Source: Escherichia coli
Lineage (GTDB): Bacteria; Pseudomonadota; Gammaproteobacteria; Enterobacterales; Enterobacteriaceae
Strand: one strand, 5' to 3'
Length of the DNA: 64,000 nucleotides
Assembly: GCF_003334305.1 (NCBI RefSeq)
Contig: NZ_QOWS01000007.1
The notes beneath the pieces were generated by a model, which was not told the DNA's origin, ran no database searches, and saw only the letters and a program-made list of their open reading frames with translations. The translations under genes and the position numbers were made by a program. Positions 9,479 to 24,221 of this stretch are shown in pieces (position 1 is the stretch's first letter; each line of letters opens with the position of its first letter).

Positions 9479-9798
9479 TGAATCGAATTTATGCGTGTCC
9501 CGTTGCGGATGTGCCGGAGGGTGAGGCTCTCCGGATCGATACCTCGCCCGTCATCGCCCTGTTCAACGTTGGCGGCGAGTTTTATGCCATTAACGATCGT
9601 TGCAGCCATGGTAATGCGTCAATGTCAGAAGGGTATCTGGAAGATGACGCCACGGTGGAGTGCCCGCTACACGCCGCCAGTTTTTGCCTGAAAACGGGGA
9701 AAGCGTTATGCCTGCCCGCCACCGATCCGCTCACCACTTATCCAGTACACGTTGAAGGTGGTGACATTTTCATCGACTTACCGGAGGCGCAGCCATGA
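9478..9798 (+). CDS. hcaC: 3-phenylpropionate dioxygenase ferredoxin subunit (Rieske ferredoxin), 106 aa
   Basis: ORF track 9478..9798; CSHG...CPLH Rieske ligands visible. Confidence 0.9.
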
Positions 9799-10607
9799 GC
9801 GATCTGCATAACGAGTCCATTTTTATTACCGGCGGCGGATCGGGATTAGGGCTGGCGCTGGTCGAGCGATTTATCGAAGAAGGCGCGCAGGTTGCCACGC
9901 TGGAACTGTCGGCGGCAAAAGTCGCCAGTCTGCGTCAGCGATTTGGCGAACATATTCTGGCGGTGGAAGGTAACGTGACCTGTTATGCCGATTATCAACG
10001 CGCGGTCGATCAGATCCTGACTCGTTCCGGCAAGCTGGATTGTTTTATCGGCAATGCAGGCATCTGGGATCACAATGCCTCACTGGTTAATACTCCCGCA
10101 GAGACGCTCGAAACCGGCTTCCACGAGCTGTTTAACGTCAATGTTCTCGGTTACCTGCTGGGCGCAAAAGCCTGCGCTCCGGCGTTAATCGCCAGTGAAG
10201 GCAGCATGATTTTCACACTGTCAAATGCCGCCTGGTATCCTGGCGGCGGTGGCCCGCTGTACACCGCCAGTAAACATGCCGCAACCGGACTTATTCGCCA
10301 ACTGGCTTATGAACTGGCACCGAAAGTGCGGGTGAATGGCGTCGGCCCGTGTGGTATGGCCAGCGACCTGCGCGGCCCACAGGCGCTCGGGCAAAGTGAA
10401 ACCTCGATAATGCAGTCTCTGACGCCGGAGAAAATTGCCGCCATTTTACCGCTGCAATTTTTCCCGCAACCGGCGGATTTTACGGGGCCGTATGTGATGT
10501 TGGCATCGCGGCGCAATAATCGCGCATTAAGCGGTGTGATGATCAACGCTGATGCGGGTTTAGCGATTCGCGGCATTCGCCACGTAGCGGCTGGGCTGGA
10601 TCTTTAA
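9795..10607 (+). CDS. hcaB: 2,3-dihydroxy-2,3-dihydrophenylpropionate dehydrogenase (SDR family), 270 aa
   Basis: ORF track 9795..10607; N-terminal TGGGSGLG Rossmann motif. Confidence 0.9.
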
Positions 10608-11819
<1,212 letters not shown>

Positions 11820-11915: not shown

Positions 11916-12338
11916 ATGAACACACTACGTTATTTTGATTTTGGAGCTGCCCGCCCCGTTTTGTTATTAATTGCCCGTATCGCCGTGGTCTTAATTTTCA
12001 TTATTTTTGGTTTTCCCAAAATGATGGGCTTTGACGGTACGGTCCAATATATGGCCTCGTTGGGCGCGCCAATGCCGATGCTGGCAGCGATTATTGCGGT
12101 AGTTATGGAAGTGCCCGCCGCGATATTAATCGTGCTTGGCTTTTTCACCCGTCCGCTGGCGGTGCTGTTTATTTTCTACACGCTGGGTACGGCGGTGATT
12201 GGTCACCATTACTGGGATATGACCGGCGATGCGGTTGGGCCAAATATGATTAATTTCTGGAAGAATGTCAGTATCGCTGGCGCATTCCTGCTGCTGGCAA
12301 TTACCGGGCCGGGGGCAATTTCTCTCGATCGGCGTTAG
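11916..12338 (+). CDS. yphA: DoxX-family inner membrane protein YphA, 140 aa
   Basis: ORF track 11844..12338; start set to ATG 11916 after an AAGGG RBS; small hydrophobic protein. Confidence 0.8.
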
Positions 12339-12343
12339 GAAAG

Positions 12344-12378
12344 ATGCCGGATGCGGCGTGAACGCCTTATCCGGCATT
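12344..12378. repeat. REP element
   Basis: gatgccggatgcggcgtgaacgccttatccggcat, canonical REP palindrome between convergent yphA and yphB. Confidence 0.85.
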
Positions 12379-12385
12379 TAATAAA

Positions 12386-13258
12386 TTACAGCCACTCTAC
12401 CCGCAACGACATCTCTGAAGTTGTTGATTCCCCTGGTGCTAGCGCAATGAGATCACCCCCTTCCGGGCGATGATGATCATCCGGCGCATGGCTCATCGGT
12501 TCCAGACAGAAGAAATCAAACGCATATCCTTTATCAAACGCAGGGTCGGAAACAAAGATGAAATAACACGGTGCAGGTGGCGTCGTTTCCATGATGATGG
12601 CATAACCTTCCTGCGGCTGCTCGATGCGGGCCTGACCATTCCATCCGGCAAAACCATTGTTCACCCACTGGCGCGGCAACGGCGCGGGCTGGTTAAAATC
12701 CAGTTCCTGCGGTAGCTGCTCGCAAAACTCACCCGCCAGCCACTGCTCCCGCTCCAGCCAGTAACCGCTCGCCTGTGCCTGAATCCGCGTTTGCGGCGAC
12801 AACGGAAAATAAGGATGCCAGCCGGTACCAAATGGCAGCGTCTCTGCCCCTTGATTGGTGACAGAGAGCGTCACCGTCAGCGTATCCGCCGTTAAATGAA
12901 ACGCCTGACTTACCCGATAGTGATAGACACCGCTGCGATGTTCATACACCAGACACAAACTATCATCGCTGTGCGAGACACATTGCCACTCGCCCAGCCA
13001 GCCATCGCCGTGTAGATAGTGCGCATCCCACTCAACATTCGGTTGCAGTTGATACTCACGCCCCTGCCAGACAAAACGATTGCCGCTCACCCGGTTTGCA
13101 AATGGCACCAGCGGAAAACATGAGGCATCGGTTGCCACACCGCTTTTTTTACCAGGACGTAAGAGCGGCGTCGTATCGCGCCAGAAGCCTTCGATTACGC
13201 CGCCCTGGTCAGAAACGTCCAGCTTTAGCGACCCGTGGGATAAGGTATAGATGGTCAT
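12386..13258 (-). CDS. yphB: Aldose 1-epimerase (mutarotase) family protein YphB, 290 aa
   Basis: ORF track 12386..13258; recognised as E. coli YphB, remembered as aldose-1-epimerase-like. Confidence 0.85.
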   Translation of the reverse strand: MTIYTLSHGSLKLDVSDQGGVIEGFWRDTTPLLRPGKKSGVATDASCFPLVPFANRVSGNRFVWQGREYQLQPNVEWDAHYLHGDGWLGEWQCVSHSDDSLCLVYEHRSGVYHYRVSQAFHLTADTLTVTLSVTNQGAETLPFGTGWHPYFPLSPQTRIQAQASGYWLEREQWLAGEFCEQLPQELDFNQPAPLPRQWVNNGFAGWNGQARIEQPQEGYAIIMETTPPAPCYFIFVSDPAFDKGYAFDFFCLEPMSHAPDDHHRPEGGDLIALAPGESTTSEMSLRVEWL

Positions 13259-13269
13259 CCGCTAACTCC

Positions 13270-14331
13270 TTAATCCGGGAAGTTAATCACAACTTTCCCG
13301 CATTTGCCGCTCGCCATCAGCGCATAGGCATCACCTGCCTGTTCCAGCGAGAAGCGATGGGTAATGGCGTTACGCGGCCACAGTTTCCAGTCCGTCAGAT
13401 CATGGGCGCATTTTTCCATATGGAACAGACTGGTCACCCAGGAGCCGATAATCCGCCGTTGATGGTGCATCAGATCGGCGCTGACCTCGAACTCCACTTT
13501 TCCGGTTTCTCCGATGTAAACCACCCGTCCCCAGTCAGCGGTGGATCGCAGTGCCAGCAAGCGACCTGCGGCATTACCAGAACAATCGAGCGCAACATCC
13601 GCGCCACCGTGGGTGAGTTCGGCGATAATCTGCGGCAGACCTTCGGTGGTTGCTAAATAGCCGTGATCCATCACCCCTAACTGTTTTGCCATCGCCAGAC
13701 GTTCCGGCAGCATATCAACGCCGATGATCCGTTTTGCACCGCGACCTTTCGCCAGCATCATCGCCATCATGCCGACTGGCCCCAGACCGACCACCAGCAC
13801 GTTATCACTGCCGGAAACTTCGCCGCGCAAAATCCCTTCATAGGCCGTGCCAACGCCGCAACTGATAAACGCACCATCTTCGTAGCTCAGCGCATCCGGC
13901 AGGAGGATCAGATCTTTTTCTTCCGCCAGCAGATATTCGGCATGACCGCCGTCACGCTGCCAGCCGTAAGCCGCTTTTCCTTTGCCAGTACAAGAGATAG
14001 GAAAGCCGCGGCGGCAGTTCGGGCAAAAACCACAGCCAGAAATGTGATACACCAGCACGCGATCACCCTCTTTAAAATGGCGACAGCCTTGCCCCATCGC
14101 CACAATCTGCCCGCACGGTTCATGACCGTTGATAAATCCCTGGTATAACGGTTTATCGGGTGCCGCCGCCGTGGCACGGTGTTGATGATAGATATAGTGG
14201 ACATCGCTTCCGCAAATCCCGGAGGATTTCATTTTGATCAGTACCTGGTTAATCCCCGGCGTCGGCACCGCAACTTCCCGCAGATCGACGGTTGAATTTC
14301 CTGGTAAATAAGCTGCCAGCATCGTTTTCAT
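13270..14331 (-). CDS. yphC: Zn-dependent medium-chain alcohol/polyol dehydrogenase YphC, 353 aa
   Basis: ORF track 13270..14364; start set to ATG 14329-14331 (MKTMLAAY...); GICGSDVH zinc-ADH signature. Confidence 0.85.
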   Translation of the reverse strand: MKTMLAAYLPGNSTVDLREVAVPTPGINQVLIKMKSSGICGSDVHYIYHQHRATAAAPDKPLYQGFINGHEPCGQIVAMGQGCRHFKEGDRVLVYHISGCGFCPNCRRGFPISCTGKGKAAYGWQRDGGHAEYLLAEEKDLILLPDALSYEDGAFISCGVGTAYEGILRGEVSGSDNVLVVGLGPVGMMAMMLAKGRGAKRIIGVDMLPERLAMAKQLGVMDHGYLATTEGLPQIIAELTHGGADVALDCSGNAAGRLLALRSTADWGRVVYIGETGKVEFEVSADLMHHQRRIIGSWVTSLFHMEKCAHDLTDWKLWPRNAITHRFSLEQAGDAYALMASGKCGKVVINFPD

Positions 14332-14396
14332 AAATCCCTCATTAACAATACGATTAATTTTCATCCCTGCCGCACCCGCGCCAGGGGCGTTAAGGT

Positions 14397-15395
14397 TTAG
14401 CGTTTCGCTTTACTGCTTCGCTGGGTCAGCAAGATATTCGCCAGCACCGCCACCACGATGATGACGCCGCGTACCACCTGCTGGAAAAAGGAGTTAATAC
14501 CGAGCAGCACCAGACCGTTACCGATTAGCGTAATCACCAGCACACCAAGCAATGTACCGAACAGGGAACCGCGACCGCCGGAAAGTGCCGTACCGCCGAC
14601 CACGACCGCGGCGATGACGTCAAACTCCAGACCGTTTGCGGCACCTGCGTTACCAGAACCGAGGCGCGCCGCCAACAAAATGCCGGTCACCGCCGCTAAT
14701 AATCCCGAAAGGGTAAAGATAAGAATGCGCACCCGACGAACGTTGATGCCGCACAACTGCGCCGCCGTAGCATTACCGCCAACGGCAAAAACCGAGCGCC
14801 CGAAGGCGGTTTTGCGGCTGATGAACACAAACAGCGCAAACAACACAATCATGATCAGCGCGGATACCGGCACACCGAGAAATTGTCCGCCCAGCCAGTC
14901 CAGCACCTCGTTTTCGTCAATCGGCACTGGCAGTGCGTTCGTCATAAACAGCCCCATTCCGCGCAGGGCGCTCCACAGCCCCAGTGTGGCAACGAAACTT
15001 GGTACGTTAAACACGCCGCGCAGCACCCCGGCCAGCGTTCCCATCAGCGCGCCTAACAGCAACACCAGCAGACACGCCACCGCCAGCGGAACTTCAAATT
15101 GCAGCAAAAATGCCAGGCACACCGAGACAAAAGCCACCATCGGCCCAACGCTGACATCAATTTCACCGGAGATAATAATCAGCGTCATCGCCCAGGCGGC
15201 AATCCCAATGGTGGCGGCATCGCGCAGCACGTTCATCTGGTTATTCAATGAGATAAAGCCAGGCGCGTTCAGGGAGAAGACCAGATAAAGAATGGCGATT
15301 ACCACCAGCAAACCGATCTCATTAATATGGCGACTGACAAATTGTTTGAGCGAGACGCTCTTGCCCTGCGGCAATGATAATGACGAAGCAGACAT
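14397..15395 (-). CDS. yphD: ABC transporter permease (sugar, RbsC-like) YphD, 332 aa
   Basis: ORF track 14397..15395; polytopic membrane protein adjacent to the ABC ATPase. Confidence 0.85.
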   Translation of the reverse strand: MSASSLSLPQGKSVSLKQFVSRHINEIGLLVVIAILYLVFSLNAPGFISLNNQMNVLRDAATIGIAAWAMTLIIISGEIDVSVGPMVAFVSVCLAFLLQFEVPLAVACLLVLLLGALMGTLAGVLRGVFNVPSFVATLGLWSALRGMGLFMTNALPVPIDENEVLDWLGGQFLGVPVSALIMIVLFALFVFISRKTAFGRSVFAVGGNATAAQLCGINVRRVRILIFTLSGLLAAVTGILLAARLGSGNAGAANGLEFDVIAAVVVGGTALSGGRGSLFGTLLGVLVITLIGNGLVLLGINSFFQQVVRGVIIVVAVLANILLTQRSSKAKR

Positions 15396-15419
15396 CTTCA
15401 GGTTCCTCGGTAAAATTCA

Positions 15420-16931
15420 TCAGTGCACAGACAGAATGGCGGACATCAGCTCATCCACATTGACCGGCGAGTGAAACTCCTGCGAGAACGTACCGTGCTG
15501 TAACAACAGGATGCGGTCGCACACCAGCGGCAACTCCTCCACTTCACTGGAGATAAACACCACGCTTTTTCCTTCGGCAGCCAGCTCACGGACAATACGG
15601 TAAATCTGCTGTTTGGCTTCGATATCGACGCCGCGCGTTGGCTCGTCGAGCAACAAAATCTGGCTGGCGGCATAGACCCAACGACCGATCACCACTTTTT
15701 GCTGATTGCCGCCAGAAAGCGTGCCGATGGGCGTTTCGCTACTGGCGGCCTTGACCGTCATCCGCTGCATCACCTCTTCGGTCAGGCGGCGGATGGTGGA
15801 CCATTGCAGTACGCCGTTGGCGCTGATTTTTTGCCGATTGGTCAGCACTGTATTTTCGTCAACGCCCAACCAGGGAATGATCCCCGCTTCTTTGCGGTTT
15901 TCTGGCGTATAGCCAATGCCGCGTTTCAGCATGTCGCCGTAATCGGGGCGCGTGATTTTCTCGCCGTTGATAACAATTTCGCCCTGTTCATACTCCTCCA
16001 GCCCAACAATCGCCTTCAGCAATTCACTGCGCCCTGCCCCCAGCAGGCCAGCAATGCCAAGCACTTCGCCGCGACGTAACGTAAAGCTGATATCCTCCAG
16101 CTTGGGCTTATGGCGTAATGCACGGACTTCCAGCACGGCCTGATCCACAATTTCCTGAGGGGCTACCGGCGCAATATCAACGTGATCACGCCCTAGCATT
16201 AGCGACACAATATGATGCGTGGAGGTGTTTTCGAGCATCACATCGCCCGCCACCTGACCATCGCGCATAACGGTGGCACAGGAGGCAATGCGGCGGATTT
16301 CTTCCATCCGGTGGCTGACATAAATCACCGCCACGCCCAGTGCCGACATCTTTTTCACCGCACTGATCACCAGTTCAACTTCTGCACTGGCAAGCGAGCT
16401 GGTGGGTTCATCAAGAATGACCACGCGCGGCTCGCCCTTCATCACCCGTGCAATTTCCACCAGTTGCTTTTGCGCCGGGCTTAGCGTTGAAACAAGTTGT
16501 TCAGGACTAACGTCAACGCCCAGCGCCTGTAAGCAACGTTGGGCATCCTGCGCCATTTGCAGGTAATCAATCATGCCGTTGCGGCGAGGCCATTGACCAA
16601 GGCAGAGGTTTTCTGCCACCGTCAGCCCTTCCACCAGACTTAATTCCTGATAAACCGCACGAACCCCCAGTTCAGCGGCACGGCGAGTCAACGTAGCTTC
16701 GTCACCTTCCAGTCGCGTCTCGCCAATCCAGATATCACCGCTATCCGGGCGTTCGCTGCCGGTAAGCATTCGAATGAGAGTCGATTTGCCCGCGCCGTTT
16801 TTACCTAACAGCGCACGAACTTCGCCTTTATTGAGCGTGAAGTTAACGTTATCCAGCGCAACGACGCCGGGGTAACGCTTATTTCCTGCCACCACTTTTG
16901 CTACCGGGACTGCCTCTGTTGCCGTGAACAT
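15420..16931 (-). CDS. yphE: ABC transporter ATP-binding protein with duplicated ABC domains (sugar importer type) YphE, 503 aa
   Basis: ORF track 15420..16931; two Walker A motifs (GKNGAGKST, GLLGAGRSE) and LSGGNQQK signature. Confidence 0.9.
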   Translation of the reverse strand: MFTATEAVPVAKVVAGNKRYPGVVALDNVNFTLNKGEVRALLGKNGAGKSTLIRMLTGSERPDSGDIWIGETRLEGDEATLTRRAAELGVRAVYQELSLVEGLTVAENLCLGQWPRRNGMIDYLQMAQDAQRCLQALGVDVSPEQLVSTLSPAQKQLVEIARVMKGEPRVVILDEPTSSLASAEVELVISAVKKMSALGVAVIYVSHRMEEIRRIASCATVMRDGQVAGDVMLENTSTHHIVSLMLGRDHVDIAPVAPQEIVDQAVLEVRALRHKPKLEDISFTLRRGEVLGIAGLLGAGRSELLKAIVGLEEYEQGEIVINGEKITRPDYGDMLKRGIGYTPENRKEAGIIPWLGVDENTVLTNRQKISANGVLQWSTIRRLTEEVMQRMTVKAASSETPIGTLSGGNQQKVVIGRWVYAASQILLLDEPTRGVDIEAKQQIYRIVRELAAEGKSVVFISSEVEELPLVCDRILLLQHGTFSQEFHSPVNVDELMSAILSVH

Positions 16932-16953
16932 AGGGACCTCTGCGAATCAGCGA

Positions 16954-17937
16954 TTAGGGCAGACCATCAACGTGCGTTGCCAGCCACTGTTTACCATCTT
17001 CCGTTTTGGTATAGAGATCGATTGGCACCTGAATCACTTTTTCACCGTCGGCTTGTTTATTGATAACCTTCAATGTTTGCGCGAAAACAGCATTGCCCAT
17101 TTTCTTACCGGAAATATCCACTACCGCTTTCAGCACCTGATTGTTTTCCAGCTCCTGAGCAATTTCGGTTGTCATATCCGAACCGAAAACAGCAATTTTT
17201 CCGGCCTGATTTTGATTACGTACCGCTTTTACCGCGCCGAGTGTCGCACCGCCCGACTCCCCCATAATGGCGTTGAGATCCGGCGTGGAGATAATCAGTT
17301 TTTCACCAACGGAAATCGCTTTATCTAAAACAGTCCCTTCCTGATTAGCGACAATTTGCGCGCCGGGAACGCGGGATTTTAATACTTCTTCAAATCCTTT
17401 ACGTCGCTGCACACAAACTTCAAAGGCTTCGCAATTGATGACGGCAATTTTCGGCTGGTCAATTTTATTGGCAATAAAATAATCGGCGGCAGCGTTACCC
17501 AGTTTTTTACCAAATTCCAGTGGATCGCCGACCAGATACGCCGAGACATATTTATCGACACCCTTTTGATTAATACAGGTGTTGTAGCAAATCACCGGAA
17601 TACCCGCTTCACTGGCGCGACGAACGGTACGGCTACTGCCATTTTCAGACACTGCCGATAAAATAATGGCATCGACATTACGCGCCACGAGGGTATCAAC
17701 AAAGGTACTTTCTTTCGAAATATCACCCTGGGCGTTAGTTTCAATTAACTGTACCTGTACTGAAGAATCTTTTGCCGCATCCTGAACGCCCTGACGCACT
17801 CCAGCGTAATATCCCTGGGTATCAAGGTATATTGCACCAATGGTCATCTCTTTATCCGCAGCCCTGGCAAATAGTGCGCTACCTAATAGCGTACCCATTA
17901 ATAATAGATTACGGGTTGTTCTCATTTTTTTAGGCAT
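16954..17937 (-). CDS. yphF: Periplasmic sugar-binding protein of ABC transporter YphF, 327 aa
   Basis: ORF track 16954..17937; N-terminal signal-peptide-like segment, RbsB-like. Confidence 0.85.
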   Translation of the reverse strand: MPKKMRTTRNLLLMGTLLGSALFARAADKEMTIGAIYLDTQGYYAGVRQGVQDAAKDSSVQVQLIETNAQGDISKESTFVDTLVARNVDAIILSAVSENGSSRTVRRASEAGIPVICYNTCINQKGVDKYVSAYLVGDPLEFGKKLGNAAADYFIANKIDQPKIAVINCEAFEVCVQRRKGFEEVLKSRVPGAQIVANQEGTVLDKAISVGEKLIISTPDLNAIMGESGGATLGAVKAVRNQNQAGKIAVFGSDMTTEIAQELENNQVLKAVVDISGKKMGNAVFAQTLKVINKQADGEKVIQVPIDLYTKTEDGKQWLATHVDGLP

Positions 17938-18033
17938 AGTGCCTCCTGTAGGGTTTTTATTAACAACGGCTTATTCTAATTATTTTGTGATGAGCGGCAG
18001 CGCGTGCCGCTCAAATATTACAGTTAATAGGGT

Positions 18034-21000
18034 TTAGTGAACGTAGTTAAAAATAAAAGGCATCACGGTGGTGAATAATGCCGCTTTCGGCCAGGCCGGA
18101 TTAATCGCCGTCAATTCAGCGCGAGCAGATTCATATTGCGCAACCTCCCCGAGTCCCGCGGACGCCAGCATCGCCACCATCAGGCATTTTTCTTTATGCT
18201 GCTGTTGTAAATCGCCATACAGCGACAACAGGTCAGGTTGTGAAACAGCAAAGAAATCCGCCTCAATACTGGTTTTCGCCATCTCTTGCGCCCACTGTTT
18301 CATTTCACTAAACAGTTGCTGTGCGGTTTGCTGTTCACCCAGCAGTCGCAGCGCCATTCCTTGCCAGAAGAGATAATCAACCGGCTGATCGTTGTAATAA
18401 CTGTGGATGTTAATGGTGCGATCGCCGGTCGCCGCCAGACGTAAACAACGCATCGCTTCAGTTTCATCGCCCTGCGCGTTGGCGCATATCGCCTGCCAGA
18501 ACCAGATGTCGTTATCAGTTTGCCCCGGTAAACGGCCTTCGCTTAAATTCTCCGGATAATGCAGCGCGGCATGAAGCAGTTCGCTGGCCTGCTGCGGCTC
18601 TCTGGCATCAAGATGCTGCCAGGCGCGTAATAACTGGTTGAGGATAAACTGACTGGTGACCTTCCCTTCCCCGCCTTCCCACGGGTGGAATTTGCGCGTG
18701 GCGAGAATGTCCGCCGCTTTGTCTGCCTGACCCGTGAGATGCCACAAATTGAGCAACTCTGCTGTCATGTCGTCGCGTTTCAGCGCAATTTCCAGATTAT
18801 TTTCCAGACGCGCCAGTCGTTTCTCCGGTGTGGCTCCGCTTAACTTATCAAGCAAATCCCGTTCGAAAAGCAGACGTGCATCCTGCGGCGCAAGCTGATA
18901 AGCATTATCAAGATAACGCGCGGCCAGCTCATAATCGTGTTGCTTATTCCACGCATGGATCGCTAACCCGCGCCAGCCGTCGGCAAACTCCGGCGACATC
19001 TCTACGCAACGTTGCCATAAGGTAATGGCTTTGTTGTAGCTACGCTTGTTGTAGTAGAAGCAGGCCAGTAAATGACGGGCAAACCAGCACTCTTCAATAC
19101 TCTCCAGCGCCGCCACTTCTTCCAGCGTATTCGGGAAACGGACAAACTGCGGGAAGACATCAATGGCTTTTGCGACCAGTTCGCCGCGTTCGGCTTTCGG
19201 CAATAAACTCGCCTGCAGGTAAAGCGGCAGCGTGCGCTGGCAGTCCAGTGCGTTCAGCATCTCTGCCGCCAGGGTGGGCATTCCCCAGTTAATCAGTTGC
19301 CCGGCGGTCATCAGAGCGTTAACGTCGCGTCCCTGACACAGACCGCGCCACTGCGCGAGAGCTGATTCGCTACGACCATCGAACCAGTTCAGCCACCACA
19401 GAGTGGCGTTCAGCGGATAATCGCGCAGCAGTTTCTCGCGCTGCACACGCGCGTTGTCCTGACGACCACTTAACACCAGCAGCAGATTATGCAGGCAAAG
19501 CACTTCCTGATTGGTTGGGCAGGCGCGAAGACTTTGTTGGCAAAAATCCAGACCAGCGTCGAAGTTACCATTACGCGCCGCCAGTCGTGCCAGGCCATAA
19601 TAGCCACCGGCTTTGCTGTTGCCGCTCCAGACCGCACGCCAGAAATCCTCTTCGGCTTGTTGATATTGTCCCTGACGTTCGTAAGCACTGGCGCGAATCA
19701 AACTGGCCTGTCCGCACTGCGGATTTTTGTTCAGCGCATGTGCGCGTTTCAGCGCCTGAGTGGCATACGCCACCGCTTGCGGGAAATCGGCGCGGTTATA
19801 TTCCAGCATCGCCAGCGCCAGGTTACAGCGGTAATCCAGCGGATCCAGCACCACGCCGCGCAGGTAGTAATCGAACGGTGAACGGCTGGCGTGATGATAT
19901 TGCTCCAGATGCTGACCGATAAACCAGGCTTCATCTGTACTGGTAATGTCTTGTGCTGCCAGTGGCGCTTTGGCGACGTCCGGCAACGGCAACTCTTGCG
20001 GCTGATGTTCCTGATAACTCAGTACAATATTGCCGTCGGCATCGGAGAGCTCAATGGTCAGCCTTTCAGGATTGATACCGTGCAACACGCCCTGGATGGC
20101 GGTCGCAGGCATCAGTGCCACGGCATCATCAAGTAACGCGTTGCATTTGCCGATTTCGCGGATCGCCAGGCGGTATCCGTTCAACGGAGAGATGGCATAC
20201 AGCCCCCACTCAATCCCCCGCTTACTACGCTGGAGTTTTATCACCGCATCGCGGGAGGCATTTTGCACCATGCCCAAAGAATGATAAGGCAGGAAATACT
20301 GCTCAAAACGCATCTCTTCGTAAGCATCAAGCCAGGTAAAATCGGGCTGGTTATCGGCAAAAATACCGGTCATCAGTTCGATATACGGGCCGTTATTGTC
20401 GGTCAGACTCTTATCCCACGCCTGGCCAAATTCACTGTGTCCCCAACTCCACTGTTTTTTACCTGGCGCGATATGGTGGTTGGCAACGTGCAGCAAACCG
20501 CCATCTTCATCGTGACACCACGCGCCGACAAAATCGTACTGCGATTTTTCGGCCATATATGAGGTTGGAACAGGCACATTTTTATAGCGAGAAATGTCCA
20601 CTCCGGCGGAGTAGTCCACTTTGTAGTAAGTGCCGGTGGCGATGGGGAAAGCGGAGACGGCCCGTTTGCCGTGATCAAACACCGCAGTCACATCCGGTGG
20701 GAAAACGCTCTGATGCCCTTCCCCCCCTTTCACTGCCGGGTTGGCCCACCACAAGAAATGACGCGGCGTGGCGTTACCGTTATAGACGCGGCTGGCGATT
20801 TCCAGCGCCGCCCGTTCAGGACGCAGTGTGAAACCTGTCATCACCTGTAAACCGTGCATCGGCTCCGTTTCGCCGACCCACACCGTCTGTGCGCCGTCTT
20901 CATGGGCTTCGAGGGTGAAATCAACGGGCATAAAGGTGGTCGGGCGATGGTGTTGCGGCCAGTTAAACTCAATCCCGCCAGAGATCCACGGTCCCAGCAG

Positions 21001-21315
21001 CCCCACCAGCGCAGGTTTAATGACTTCATTGTGATAGACAAAATCGCGTTGTTTCACTTTATCCCATGCGCGATGCACACGACCGCCCAGTTCCGGCAGG
21101 ATCATCACTTTGATGTAGTCGTTTTCCAGCCACACCGCCTGCCAGGATTTCAGGGTTTTCTGCTCGCTCAGCGTATCGGTCACGCCGTAGGGATAAACCG
21201 CGCCGGACGATCCCTGATAAACGCGATTTTCCAAGAACATGGGATGTATATCCTGCGGCCCGGTTTCATAGGTCGGGATCTCAACGCGCTCTTGCCACAC
21301 TTTTACTGGAGTCAT
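18034..21315 (-). CDS. yphG: Large uncharacterised protein YphG (N-terminal domain of unknown function plus C-terminal TPR repeats), 1093 aa
   Basis: ORF track 18034..21408; start set to ATG 21313-21315, preceded by a GAGGG RBS; the longer form would need a TTG start with no RBS. Confidence 0.8.
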   Translation of the reverse strand: MTPVKVWQERVEIPTYETGPQDIHPMFLENRVYQGSSGAVYPYGVTDTLSEQKTLKSWQAVWLENDYIKVMILPELGGRVHRAWDKVKQRDFVYHNEVIKPALVGLLGPWISGGIEFNWPQHHRPTTFMPVDFTLEAHEDGAQTVWVGETEPMHGLQVMTGFTLRPERAALEIASRVYNGNATPRHFLWWANPAVKGGEGHQSVFPPDVTAVFDHGKRAVSAFPIATGTYYKVDYSAGVDISRYKNVPVPTSYMAEKSQYDFVGAWCHDEDGGLLHVANHHIAPGKKQWSWGHSEFGQAWDKSLTDNNGPYIELMTGIFADNQPDFTWLDAYEEMRFEQYFLPYHSLGMVQNASRDAVIKLQRSKRGIEWGLYAISPLNGYRLAIREIGKCNALLDDAVALMPATAIQGVLHGINPERLTIELSDADGNIVLSYQEHQPQELPLPDVAKAPLAAQDITSTDEAWFIGQHLEQYHHASRSPFDYYLRGVVLDPLDYRCNLALAMLEYNRADFPQAVAYATQALKRAHALNKNPQCGQASLIRASAYERQGQYQQAEEDFWRAVWSGNSKAGGYYGLARLAARNGNFDAGLDFCQQSLRACPTNQEVLCLHNLLLVLSGRQDNARVQREKLLRDYPLNATLWWLNWFDGRSESALAQWRGLCQGRDVNALMTAGQLINWGMPTLAAEMLNALDCQRTLPLYLQASLLPKAERGELVAKAIDVFPQFVRFPNTLEEVAALESIEECWFARHLLACFYYNKRSYNKAITLWQRCVEMSPEFADGWRGLAIHAWNKQHDYELAARYLDNAYQLAPQDARLLFERDLLDKLSGATPEKRLARLENNLEIALKRDDMTAELLNLWHLTGQADKAADILATRKFHPWEGGEGKVTSQFILNQLLRAWQHLDAREPQQASELLHAALHYPENLSEGRLPGQTDNDIWFWQAICANAQGDETEAMRCLRLAATGDRTINIHSYYNDQPVDYLFWQGMALRLLGEQQTAQQLFSEMKQWAQEMAKTSIEADFFAVSQPDLLSLYGDLQQQHKEKCLMVAMLASAGLGEVAQYESARAELTAINPAWPKAALFTTVMPFIFNYVH

Positions 21316-21432
21316 GGTGCCCTCAATATTAACAAGACATACTGAATTAAAAGATTTGTGGCAGTGTATTGAACAATCTGGCAATGTTTTCGCGGAATAA
21401 TCACGCAATTAACTAAACAAGGTTTAGTGAAG

Positions 21433-22626
21433 ATGAGAGCCTGCATTAACAATCAACAGATTCGCCACCATAACAAATGCGTGATTCTGGAACTGCTGTA
21501 CCGGCAAAAGCGCGCCAATAAATCAACGCTGGCCCGGCTGGCGCAAATTTCGATTCCGGCAGTCAGTAATATTTTGCAGGAACTGGAAAGCGAAAAACGG
21601 GTGGTGAATATCGACGATGAAAGCCAGACGCGCGGGCATAGTAGCGGTACATGGCTGATTGCGCCGGAAGGTGACTGGACGCTGTGCCTGAACGTGACGC
21701 CCACCAGTATTGAGTGTCAGGTTGCTAATGCTTGTTTAAGTCCGAAAGGCGAGTTTGAGTATTTACAGATTGATGCACCGACGCCGCAGGCGCTGCTGTC
21801 CGAAATCGAAAAATGCTGGCATCGCCACCGTAAATTGTGGCCGGACCGCACCATCAATCTGGCGCTGGCAATCCACGGTCAGGTTGATCCGGTGACCGGC
21901 GTGTCGCAAACCATGCCGCAAGCGCCGTGGACAACGCCGGTGGAGGTGAAATATCTGCTGGAAGAGAAGCTCGGCATTCGGGTGATGGTCGATAATGACT
22001 GCGTGATGCTGGCGCTGGCGGAGAAATGGCAAAATAATTCGCAGGAACGGGATTTCTGCGTGATCAACGTTGATTACGGCATTGGCTCGTCGTTCGTGAT
22101 TAACGAGCAAATTTATCGCGGCAGTTTGTATGGTAGCGGACAGATTGGTCACACCATCGTTAATCCGGATGGCGTCGTCTGCGACTGTGGACGTTACGGC
22201 TGCCTGGAAACCGTCGCCTCGTTAAGTGCTTTAAAAAAACAGGCGCGGGTATGGCTAAAATCACAACCGGTTAATACTCAGCTTGATCCTGAAAAACTGA
22301 CAACCGCGCAGTTAATCGCTGCCTGGCAGAGTGGAGAACCGTGGATCACCAGCTGGGTTGACCGCAGTGCCAATGCCATTGGTTTGAGTCTGTATAACTT
22401 CCTCAACATCCTCAATATTAATCAGATTTGGTTGTACGGTCGCAGTTGTGCCTTTGGTGAGAACTGGCTTAATACTATTATTCGCCAGACAGGATTTAAC
22501 CCGTTCGACCGCGACGAAGGACCGAGCGTGAAAGCGACGCAAATTGGCTTCGGGCAATTAAGCCGCGCACAACAGGTGCTGGGAATTGGCTATTTGTATG
22601 TTGAGGCGCAGTTACGACAGATTTGA
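21433..22626 (+). CDS. yphH: ROK (NagC/XylR) family transcriptional regulator YphH, 397 aa
   Basis: ORF track 21427..22626 (GTG); first ATG at 21433 used; N-terminal HTH and ROK-type Cys cluster (CDCGRYGC). Confidence 0.8.
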   Translation: MRACINNQQIRHHNKCVILELLYRQKRANKSTLARLAQISIPAVSNILQELESEKRVVNIDDESQTRGHSSGTWLIAPEGDWTLCLNVTPTSIECQVANACLSPKGEFEYLQIDAPTPQALLSEIEKCWHRHRKLWPDRTINLALAIHGQVDPVTGVSQTMPQAPWTTPVEVKYLLEEKLGIRVMVDNDCVMLALAEKWQNNSQERDFCVINVDYGIGSSFVINEQIYRGSLYGSGQIGHTIVNPDGVVCDCGRYGCLETVASLSALKKQARVWLKSQPVNTQLDPEKLTTAQLIAAWQSGEPWITSWVDRSANAIGLSLYNFLNILNINQIWLYGRSCAFGENWLNTIIRQTGFNPFDRDEGPSVKATQIGFGQLSRAQQVLGIGYLYVEAQLRQI

Positions 22627-22689: not shown

Positions 22690-23943
22690 TTATGCGTAAA
22701 CCGGGTAACGTGCGCAGATGTCGAGAACTTTACCTTTGATGCGCTCGATAACGGCTTCATCATTGATGCTGTCCAGCACGTCACACATCCAGCCAGCCAG
22801 TTCTTTCGCTTCTGCTTCTTTGAAGCCGCGACGCGTAATTGCCGGAGTACCCACGCGAATACCGGAGGTCACAAACGGGCTCTTCGGATCGTTCGGTACG
22901 CTGTTTTTGTTGACGGTGATGTTAGCACGGCCCAGAGCGGCGTCTGCTTCTTTACCGGTCAGGTTTTTATCGACCAGATCAACCAGGAACAGATGGTTAT
23001 CAGTACCGCCGGAAACCACTTTGTAGCCGCGTTCCAGGAACACTTCTACCATCGCTTTAGCGTTTTTAGCGACCTGCTGCTGGTAAGTTTTGAACTCAGG
23101 CTCCATCGCTTCTTTCAGAGCAACCGCTTTACCGGCGATTACGTGCATCAACGGACCGCCCTGACCACCAGGGAAAACGGCAGAGTTCAGTTTTTTGTAC
23201 AGCTCTTCGCTACCACCTTTCGCCAGGATCAGGCCGCCGCGCGGACCCGCCAGGGTTTTGTGAGTGGTGGTAGTAACAACGTGAGCATGAGGAACCGGGT
23301 TCGGGTAGACGCCAGCAGCAACCAGGCCCGCAACGTGCGCCATATCAACGAACAGGTAAGCACCGATGCTGTCAGCGATTTCACGCATTTTCGCCCAGTC
23401 CACCACGCCGGAATATGCAGAGAAACCACCGATAATCATTTTCGGCTTGTGTTCTTTGGCTTGTTTTTCCAGATCGGCGTAGTCGATATGACCGGTAGCA
23501 TCGATACCGTAAGGAACGATGTTGTACAGTTTACCGGAGAAGTTAACCGGAGAACCGTGAGTCAGGTGACCGCCATGCGCCAGGTTCATACCCAGAACGG
23601 TATCACCTGGTTCCAGCAGCGCGGTGTAGACCGCAAAGTTAGCCTGGGAGCCGGAGTGCGGCTGGACGTTAGCGTAGTCAGCGCCGAACAGTTCTTTCGC
23701 ACGATCGATCGCCAGTTGTTCAACGATATCAACATACTCGCAACCGCCGTAGTAGCGTTTGCCCGGATAACCTTCAGCATATTTGTTGGTCAGCTGAGAA
23801 CCCTGCGCCTGCATTACGCGCGGGCTGGTGTAGTTTTCGGAGGCGATCAGTTCGATGTGCTCTTCCTGACGTACTTTTTCCTGCTCCATAGCCTGCCACA
23901 GTTCGGCATCATAATCGGCAATGTTCATTTCACGCTTTAACAT
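22690..23943 (-). CDS. glyA: Serine hydroxymethyltransferase GlyA, 417 aa
   Basis: ORF track 22690..23949; start set to ATG 23941-23943 ([12 protein letters not shown]...) preceded by AGGAG RBS. Confidence 0.95.
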
Positions 23944-24221
23944 CCGCATCTCCTGACTCAGCTAACAATAAAATTTTTGGCCTTTATAGGCGGTCCTGTT
24001 GGACAACGGCGAACAGTATAACCGAATCATTGTGCGATAACAGGTCTTGACAAAGGAATTTACGCAAACGATTACCTTCAGGCTACGCAAGGCTTTGGAG
24101 AATAAAGAGCTTGCAACCGGAAACGGATTTCTTTTCAGGTTTGTGATGCAAATTTTTCACTTCATCACATTCTTTCTGAAAAACACCAAAGAACCATTTA
24201 CATTGCAGGGCTATTTTTTAT

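Follow-up and report, generated by a model that had tools for sequence, protein, structure and literature searches.

The Escherichia coli yph locus and the widespread, unassigned YphG protein family

Which sugar does the yph locus of Escherichia coli serve? Even in this best-annotated of organisms, a 10.7-kb operon carried by every complete genome has no assigned substrate. The locus comprises eight genes, yphA to yphH, at positions 11916-22626 of the window, which is the whole 64,000-nucleotide stretch of E. coli DNA analyzed here. The original prediction, made from the sequence of the window, had placed eight genes at these positions, and its coordinates were confirmed by the open reading frames (ORFs) and by the RefSeq annotation of strain A7. 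All 10711 of 10711 bases are identical to that strain, in which RefSeq annotates exactly yphA-yphH, flanked by hcaD and glyA. Since the ORFs are long and annotated, chance ORFs are of no concern. The stretch was matched in all 5426 of 5426 complete E. coli genomes, on the chromosome only, and was covered to at least 80% in 5371 of them; yphG by itself reached at least 80% cover in 5420 of the 5426, with identities of 90-100%.

The locus is a known kind of system with an unsurprising architecture, a repressor-controlled sugar operon, around an unassigned, widespread enzyme family. We put about even odds (a probability of roughly 0.5) on yphGFEDCB and yphH being an intact, selectively maintained operon that imports and converts a monosaccharide-sized sugar, most likely a galactose-configured one. 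The families named in the original prediction (DoxX, mutarotase-like protein, zinc dehydrogenase, sugar-type ATP-binding cassette (ABC) importer, tetratricopeptide repeat (TPR) protein and ROK regulator) were all recovered with RefSeq, NCBIfam, Pfam and the PDB. Its emphasis on the importer and a "polyol" dehydrogenase fared less well: both are present, but the comparison of loci marks them as lineage-specific add-ons, and the focus shifts from them to YphG. The label "TPR-containing protein" is right about the repeats, but understates a protein that is the signature component of the system. Likewise, what had been called an undescribed system is undescribed in its function, whereas its genes had already been named and annotated.

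YphG and its partners in other bacteria

A scan for YphG homologs, with one genome per species, yielded 80 further loci. They are distributed over Enterobacterales, Aeromonas and Photobacterium, Bifidobacterium, Bacteroidota (Mucilaginibacter, Chitinophaga, Pedobacter, Prevotella, Zobellia and others) and Bacillota (Lachnospiraceae, Paenibacillus and Ruminococcaceae). The ORFs of the loci were called and clustered by BLASTP, the clusters were named with NCBIfam and Pfam, and neighbors within 6 kb were counted over 83 loci. All homologs in the 80 further loci are full-length and about 40% identical to YphG. The neighborhoods of two metagenomic representatives were uninformative, with a short contig in one case and unrelated neighbors in the other (P0129 and P0137).

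The most frequent neighbors were a sugar porter and an AraC-type regulator, each near YphG in 43 of the 83 loci. A ROK regulator was present in 13, a CUT2 (monosaccharide-type) ABC ATPase in 11 and a zinc dehydrogenase in 6. Either the porter or a CUT2 system occurred in 49 of 83 loci, and a mutarotase in 23, either YphB-like (13) or GalM (10). In Aeromonas, Serratia and a Sodalis-like record, the gene order is a divergent ROK gene, YphG, a XylE-like sugar porter of the major facilitator superfamily (MFS) and a YphB-like epimerase; the ABC system and the dehydrogenase are absent from these loci. The XylE-like porter stands in place of the ABC system in Aeromonas, Serratia, Citrobacter, Cedecea and Photobacterium. 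The E. coli gene order recurs in Klebsiella, except that the DoxX gene lies on the other side of the cluster, and a single operon of Enterobacter sp. BIGb0383 combines the ABC-YphC block with the conserved sugar porter.

The porter genes adjoin YphG in loci L002-L086 (for example L002:13361-14815 and L076:4055-5389), and their products share 74-79% identity among gamma-proteobacteria; between Aeromonas and Bacteroidota the figure is 42-62%. By this comparison, the porter is conserved at least as tightly as YphG (~40%), which is unusually high for transporters compared across phyla and would be explained by very strong constraint or by horizontal transfer of the porter together with YphG. Because the porter is as conserved as YphG, the functional unit would be a transporter plus YphG, usually with a mutarotase and a regulator. 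On the comparative evidence, the conserved core is thus a regulator, YphG, a monosaccharide-type transporter and a mutarotase, with YphDEF and YphC as the variant of Enterobacteriaceae.

In gut and soil Bacteroidota and in Firmicutes, YphG is encoded within loci rich in beta- and alpha-galactosidases. Glycoside hydrolase (GH) family 2 proteins, closest to the exo-beta-1,4-galactosidase BT4151, occurred in 30 of 83 loci, GH35 in 12, GH97 alpha-galactosidases in 4 and GH27-like proteins in 4; at least one of these four galactosidase types was found in 41 of 83. A GluP-type glucose/galactose transporter was present in a single locus, and sulfatases and SusC/SusD in the loci of marine and soil Bacteroidota. 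A galactose-configured sugar was proposed because beta- and alpha-galactosidases, GalM and the one glucose/galactose transporter recur near YphG. The existence of minimal four-gene modules would in turn make the product of the pathway an ordinary sugar.

Fold, conservation and proposed role of YphG

The yphG gene (18034-21315, minus strand) is the first of the operon and encodes a 1093-aa protein, in which Pfam recognizes DUF5107 (residues 39-323, E 9e-55) and TPR repeats. The longest ORF (18034-21408, 1124 aa, TTG start) extends beyond the conserved N-terminus and, if used, into the operator region; the start was placed at the ATG at 21315 because homologs all begin there, at MTPVKVW (conserved VKVW…IPTY). 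An exhaustive search gave 5747 representative clusters (50% identity) for the family at E<=1e-3, of which 1145 remained at E<=1e-30. No member of these more than 5700 sequence clusters has been characterized. Most family members have about 1050-1140 aa and align end to end, so that by sequence the conserved unit is the entire protein and not one domain.

An AlphaFold2 model from a 79-sequence alignment showed YphG as a single body (pLDDT 95.3, pTM 0.93), in which beta structure reaches to about residue 440 and residues 460 to 1093 form helical repeats. The N-terminal part (about 1-440, containing DUF5107) is predicted to be a beta-sandwich of the aldose-1-epimerase or galactose-mutarotase fold, and the C-terminal part (about 460-1093) is modeled as a tandem-repeat TPR solenoid. 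Foldseek searches of the PDB and AFDB50 agreed with this layout, and the full-length structural relatives in AFDB50 were all named just "DUF5107 domain-containing protein". The PDB holds only structural-genomics entries for yph proteins, namely YphB (3nre) and a short YphG relative (5cd6). The latter, BDI_1685 of Parabacteroides distasonis, is the sole solved DUF5107 protein; at 575 aa it has half the length of YphG and a much shorter helical part, and as a structural-genomics entry it transfers no function to YphG.

Conservation is concentrated in the beta-sandwich, where 60 of 350 columns are at least 90% conserved, in comparison to 21 of 638 in the helical part. The conserved residues of the sandwich are E64, D85, K86, W110, E116, H122, H123, R124, W190, H215, W291, W300, E313 and D325, with an abundance of acids, histidines and tryptophans; conservation is complete at E313 and at least 90% at H122/H123. 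Among the few conserved residues of the helical part are R782, E818 and E880. Together they look like a sugar-binding catalytic pocket with a solenoid cap. YphG would act in the cytoplasm at the anomeric (hemiacetal or acetal) carbon of the sugar, in an aldose-1-epimerase-fold pocket closed by loops of the TPR solenoid. It would either unmask a small glycoside or anhydro-sugar or convert ring forms, with an ordinary aldopyranose as the product. YphG is about three times larger than GalM, YeaD and YphB, from which it also differs by an additional beta module and a TPR solenoid of 630 residues. Because a canonical mutarotase is usually encoded alongside it, YphG is probably not just one more enzyme of that kind. 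The GH186 beta-1,2-glucanases OpgG and OpgD perform hydrolase catalysis inside a beta-sandwich related to the galactose-mutarotase superfamily, and by this precedent a hydrolytic role for YphG is conceivable.

Several results weigh against a catalytic assignment. Comparison of the YphG profile with GalM, YphB and a 25-sequence epimerase alignment gave hhalign probabilities of 0.2-1%, meaning that no sequence link to GalM or YphB was detectable by profile comparison. Consistently, Pfam assigns YphG to DUF5107 and not to Aldose_epim, and in a low-confidence alignment the second catalytic histidine of mutarotases falls on a non-conserved YphG position. No match to a characterized catalytic domain, by sequence or by fold, was found among the CAZy glycoside hydrolase and lyase families. 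As a result of the failed sequence-family assignment and the lack of a characterized relative, YphG was filed neither as a mutarotase nor in a CAZy family. Since no characterized enzyme combines an aldose-1-epimerase fold with a TPR solenoid, we only infer that YphG is an enzyme. A disguised (alpha/alpha)6-barrel glycosidase or phosphorylase of the GH15/GH65/GH94 type was rejected, as the helical part matches TPR solenoids and not barrels.

The missing sequence-level similarity to catalytic mutarotases would also fit a cytoplasmic sugar sensor or scaffold, in which the pocket binds the sugar and the TPR part binds a partner (regulator, transporter or glycosidase) to tune induction or transport, catabolism being left to YphB, YphC and housekeeping enzymes. 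Mediating protein interactions is the classical role of TPR solenoids, the C-terminal part of YphG finds its top Foldseek matches in OGT, SPINDLY, Hop and APC subunits, and tuning of this sort is performed by TPR-like sensor domains in MalT-type regulators. A regulator, moreover, is almost always encoded beside YphG (AraC-type in 43 loci, ROK in 13). However, these regulators belong to two unrelated families and sometimes none is nearby, which is unexpected for a dedicated co-regulator. The model (pTM 0.93) shows a single rigid body in which the conserved R782 and E880 look like parts of the pocket rather than of a peptide groove, and acidic residues, histidines and tryptophans crowd the conserved pocket. 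Some secreted relatives, furthermore, carry a CBM9-like or a phosphoesterase domain, as is typical of enzymes. We therefore consider a sensor or scaffold unlikely.

None of the YphG homologs in the 83 loci has a signal peptide. The neighboring GH2, GH35, GH97, GH27-like and GH30-like proteins of Bacteroidota do have one, while the versions from Firmicutes are without. YphG is predicted to be cytoplasmic because its homologs, unlike the adjacent glycosidases of Bacteroidota, lack this signal. A distant branch of the family is secreted, with signal-peptide-like N-termini and an altered motif, IEWxIPHHHRA. One of these distant relatives (P0257) has a C-terminal CBM9-like carbohydrate-binding domain and another (P0198) an endonuclease/exonuclease/phosphatase domain. 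Such extra domains are typical of carbohydrate-active enzymes, and the secreted branch may act on extracellular glycans.

A bolder reading, to which we give clearly less than an even chance, is that YphG represents a new class of cytoplasmic carbohydrate-active enzymes. Its members would use a TPR-capped epimerase-fold pocket for a step at the anomeric carbon of a galactose-type sugar, and would be co-inherited with a dedicated porter across Proteobacteria, Bacteroidota, Bacillota and Bifidobacterium. If YphG does perform a step in the use of galactan-derived sugars, current pathway maps, that of E. coli among them, lack this step. Its assignment would improve models of how gut bacteria use carbohydrates by closing a gap in them, allow thousands of "DUF5107/TPR" annotations to be corrected and leave one entry fewer among the E. 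coli genes of unknown function.

Transport, epimerization and oxidation of the sugar

In E. coli, the transporter is encoded by three minus-strand genes: yphD (14397-15395, 332 aa, CUT2 permease), yphE (15420-16931, 503 aa, tandem-domain ABC ATPase) and yphF (16954-17937, 327 aa, periplasmic sugar-binding protein). The best NCBIfam matches of YphD are RbsC (227 bits), AraH (221) and YjfF (189), with scores below the cut-offs. YphE contains two ABC domains and matches AraG, XylG, AlsA, MglA, YtfR and RbsA over its full length (E 1e-136 to 1e-115; 1e-136 to 1e-121 without RbsA), again below the cut-offs (for example, 456 bits against 689). YphF matches the allose-, galactose-, AI-2- (autoinducer-2) and ribose-binding proteins weakly, with 43-65 bits against cut-offs of 335-510; its best PDB match is 5hsg (E 1e-24), followed by ribose-binding proteins and YtfQ homologs. 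The N-terminus of YphF is a signal peptide, MPKKMRTTRNLLLMGTLLGSALFARA followed by AD (…ALFARA, then AD), and the Klebsiella orthologs of YphD and YphF carry PF02653 and PF13407. With a single two-ABC-domain ATPase, a BPD_transp_2 permease and a Peripla_BP_4-type binding protein, YphDEF is assigned by sequence to the CUT2 importers. It has the same architecture as the E. coli importers RbsABC, AraFGH, XylFGH, MglABC, AlsABC, YtfQRT-YjfF and LsrACDB, with one permease gene (yphD) in contrast to two in the Ytf and Lsr systems; across these systems, E-values were 1e-105 to 1e-136 for the ATPase and 1e-36 to 1e-67 for the permease. YphF would capture the sugar in the periplasm, and YphD and YphE would import it.

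The NCBIfam equivalog cut-offs of the named E. coli sugar ABC systems (Rbs, Ara, Xyl, Mgl, Als, Ytf and Lsr) were not reached by YphD, YphE or YphF, and the low scores of YphF mean that no CUT2 ligand can be transferred to it. The same holds for the whole locus: no Yph protein reached the curated cut-off of a substrate-specific NCBIfam model. When compared with the classical rbs, ara, xyl and mgl operons, yph agrees with them at the family level (CUT2, ROK, YphB and zinc dehydrogenase) and falls short at every substrate-level comparison. Homology thus identifies the kind of system, but not the substrate. The original prediction, which had stated that no substrate was established, is supported in this respect also by the searchable literature (most subscription journals lie outside it), in which neither a substrate nor a functional paper on any E. 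coli yph gene was found. Homology comparison likewise matched no already-characterized pathway with a known substrate. Text searches for such a pathway returned only YphC/YphF of B. subtilis, yphC typing of H. pylori, artifacts ("YpHCA") and lists of uncharacterized regulators; yphG appeared as a PCR marker for Klebsiella, and "DUF5107" in an unrelated mention only.

YphF protein was 3- to 4.6-fold more abundant on levoglucosan than on fructose in an engineered E. coli strain, which needed a foreign kinase, and XylF, MalE, UgpB, YtfQ and MglA rose likewise (PMC8753852). Levoglucosan was rejected as the yph substrate since the other transporters rise too, which looks like general catabolite derepression; the response of YphF is evidence of expression and not of specificity.

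The last gene of the operon, yphB (12386-13258, minus strand), encodes a 290-aa cytoplasmic protein that matches PDB entry 3nre ("putative aldose 1-epimerase b2544", structural genomics) over its full length with E 4.7e-210 and GalM of B. subtilis with E 5e-6. Its orthologs carry PF01263, and both the Aldose_epim fold and the sequence family are recognized. By family, YphB is therefore a predicted aldose 1-epimerase with probable mutarotase activity. YphB-like proteins follow the transporter in every gamma-proteobacterial locus that reaches past it (the Photobacterium contig, L013, ends there), with 31-49% identity outside the E. coli-type loci, and 10 loci of other phyla have GalM at the corresponding position. 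YphB would equilibrate the anomers of the YphG product and pass them to housekeeping kinases or dehydrogenases.

The yphC gene (13270-14364, minus strand) encodes a zinc-dependent medium-chain dehydrogenase (MDR). RefSeq places its start in strain A7 at 14364 (364 aa); the internal ATG at 14331 (353 aa) is probably the true start, because it has an upstream GAGGG Shine-Dalgarno sequence and the Klebsiella homolog is also 353 aa long. YphC has the Pfam domains ADH_N, ADH_zinc_N and Glu_dehyd_C together with the motifs of the zinc MDR family: GICGSD and GHEPCG for the catalytic zinc, CGFCPNCRRGFPISC for the structural zinc and GLGPVG for the nucleotide. Its NCBIfam scores of 171 bits for Tdh (cut-off 380), 168 for IolM, the scyllo-inosose 3-dehydrogenase (450), 107 for GatD (550) and 89 for IdnD (469) leave YphC below every equivalog cut-off as a named polyol, threonine or inosose dehydrogenase. 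The best PDB matches are alcohol dehydrogenase, xylitol dehydrogenase and Tdh (E ~1e-35). Found in the Enterobacteriaceae-type variant only, YphC would use NAD(P) to oxidize or reduce the sugar, its polyol form or an aglycone.

These matches raise the possibility that a polyol is the primary substrate in E. coli, such that YphDEF imports a polyol or sugar alcohol, YphC oxidizes it to a sugar as the entry enzyme, and YphB and YphG process the hemiacetal. CUT2 systems do carry polyols, and YphC lies in the polyol/threonine branch of the zinc MDRs, with xylitol and sorbitol dehydrogenases, Tdh and IolM as best matches. In a Dorea metagenome-assembled genome, a YphC homolog (48% identical) is encoded 1.1 kb from the YphG homolog, along with a second zinc dehydrogenase, a short-chain dehydrogenase (SDR), an FGGY kinase and a CUT2 binding protein. 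Two Ruminococcaceae loci (L031:13293-17874 and L047:8801-13026) have YphG upstream of a zinc dehydrogenase and a UxaB-like (tagaturonate-reductase-like) gene; L031 also contains a UxaA-like (altronate/galactarate-dehydratase-like) gene, and a Bacteroides locus (L057:16218-17711) has only the UxaA-like gene near YphG. Judging by the likeness of this set to the lower L-galactonate or hexuronate route, the pathway may have an oxidative variant. However, the YphC-type dehydrogenase is near YphG in only 6 of 83 loci and absent from all MFS-type proteobacterial ones. The latter keep the same regulator and operator, so that inducer and core chemistry need no dehydrogenase. Both transport types in Enterobacter sp. 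BIGb0383, the ABC-YphC block and the porter, suggest that their substrates are the same or closely related. A polyol-first pathway is accordingly one of the weaker rivals and, in our judgment, improbable.

Regulation, maintenance and flanks of the operon

The minus-strand genes are separated by only 11-96 bp, and for this reason yphGFEDCB fits a single operon. The divergent yphH gene (21433-22626, plus strand, 397 aa) is separated from yphG by 117 bp and encodes a ROK-family transcription factor. YphH has the ROK zinc motif CDCGRYGCLE, and its orthologs match PF00480 and, weakly, MarR; the NCBIfam scores for NagC (112 bits) and Mlc (109, residues 9-334) are both far below the cut-offs of 530-650. 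Like NagC and Mlc, the two ROK repressors of E. coli that have been characterized, YphH combines an N-terminal DNA-binding region with a ROK domain containing CxCGxxGCxE, and its gene lies divergent from or adjacent to its presumed target operon. It was placed on a long branch separate from NagC/Mlc, without the conserved GR linker motif, and was named the "third uncharacterized ROK repressor" of E. coli in 2014 (PMC4288165). It was also listed as uncharacterized in 2016 and 2018, and still in 2022 (PMC9308461); in the searchable literature it is mentioned by only seven papers. Twelve other loci encode orthologs of 54-83% identity, again in divergent orientation and some 110 bp away from YphG.

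The candidate operator of YphH is a perfect palindrome, ACTAAAC-AAG-GTTTAGT (21412-21428), that immediately precedes the yphH start codon. Beside it in the control region is an invariant box, ATCACGCAAT (21400-21409), that is conserved across genera; palindrome and box align across E. coli, Klebsiella, Aeromonas, Serratia and the Sodalis-like record. The 17-bp palindrome occurred at the same position, about 110 bp upstream of YphG, in 14 of 14 ROK-type loci, with only 6 stray matches elsewhere in a degenerate-motif scan of the 1.8 Mb of fetched loci. In the same scan, the AraC-regulated loci did not have the motif at this position. A second candidate operator, TTCACTAAAC-CCT-ATTAACT (18022-18041, minus strand), overlaps the yphG stop codon upstream of yphF. 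This copy is conserved in four ABC-type genera and was found by the motif scan in the window and in loci L001, L006 and L007. Targets of NagC and Mlc usually have two palindromic operators, and yph likewise has two candidates. The pair has good comparative evidence as candidate YphH sites. YphH would bind ACTAAAC-N3-GTTTAGT at its own start and the second copy before yphF, keeping both entry points repressed until the sugar appears, and would be released by the sugar or its derivative. With a conserved operator pair and few candidate sugars, the question can be put to a direct test in E. coli.

One further sequence in the window, ACCAAACAGTGTTTAGT at 48841-48857, differs from the palindrome by one mismatch. 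It lies 17 bp upstream of nadB, opposite rpoE/rseD, and was judged unrelated; with its TGTTTA/TAAACA arms we take it to be, most likely, the NadR box of nadB.

Between yphG and yphF lies a GC-rich hairpin, GAGCGGC-N7-GCCGCTC (17992-18012, minus strand), whose stem is invariant in E. coli, E. albertii, Enterobacter and Klebsiella (-16 kcal/mol, z-score -2.8). It is not followed by a T-run and could be a processing or stability element or a weak terminator. No Rfam element was found in the locus at gathering thresholds.

The proposal of a maintained, galactose-directed operon has to be weighed against a number of observations. The galactose assignment rests on neighbors in other phyla, since the proteobacterial loci have no glycosidase; half of the 83 loci have no galactosidase nearby, and the counts are given without the background frequency of GH2 in such genomes. 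The hairpin could decouple yphG from the downstream genes. Furthermore, the G+C content of yphF is 45.9%, in comparison to 54-56% in the other operon genes and 52% across the window. Taken together with the hairpin and the second operator copy immediately before yphF, this deviation may reflect a mosaic origin, with the ABC block grafted onto an older YphG-porter module. No experiment ties any yph gene to any sugar, and simple scans of the control regions showed no convincing sigma-70 promoter or CRP site. The last result would also be expected if the locus resembled other cryptic sugar operons and were a mere remnant in E. coli, kept by linkage, normally silent and without contribution to growth. 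That no phenotype or substrate has been reported in decades of E. coli genetics points the same way, as does the loss from E. coli of the sugar porter, the tightest partner of YphG elsewhere. Nevertheless, the ORFs of the operon and yphH are all intact, and neutrality is hard to square with a 10.7-kb region whose yphG is at least 80% covered in 5420 of 5426 genomes. The operator pair, moreover, is conserved across genera, and YphF protein is detectable and condition-responsive. This second weaker rival appears the least probable of the readings considered, and we retain the maintained sugar operon.

The eight-gene system of the original prediction holds for the operon and yphH, but the membership of yphA cannot be demonstrated. 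This gene (11916-12338, plus strand) encodes a 140-aa DoxX-family inner-membrane protein, named DoxX in RefSeq, with a weak NCBIfam match to HvfX/DoxX (41 bits against a cut-off of 80). It adjoins the cluster, convergent with yphB, in E. coli and E. albertii, while in Klebsiella, Cedecea and Enterobacter Ag1 a DoxX gene is found at the opposite end, downstream of the ROK gene. It is missing from most related loci, including those of Aeromonas, Serratia, the Sodalis-like record and Citrobacter. Since it adjoins the cluster in few Enterobacteriaceae and at two different positions, yphA was not counted as a demonstrated member; it is only loosely linked and probably a bystander.

In several Enterobacterales, an lsr-like (AI-2) operon lies directly beside yph-type loci (L008:2524-7056, L011:1674-6202, L015:3215-7742 and L005:1-8641). 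This operon encodes an FGGY kinase along with a CUT2 ABC system, to which L005 adds DeoC- and ABM-type genes. Though recurrent, the lsr genes were regarded as plain neighbors and not as yph partners, since they are absent from most loci. In the window, the locus is flanked by glyA (22690-23949) and by the end of the hca phenylpropionate dioxygenase operon (hcaB and hcaD, 9795-11819). Because hcaT directly adjoins a YphB-like gene in other Enterobacterales, the hca catabolic genes of E. coli appear to sit between hcaT and the yph cluster.

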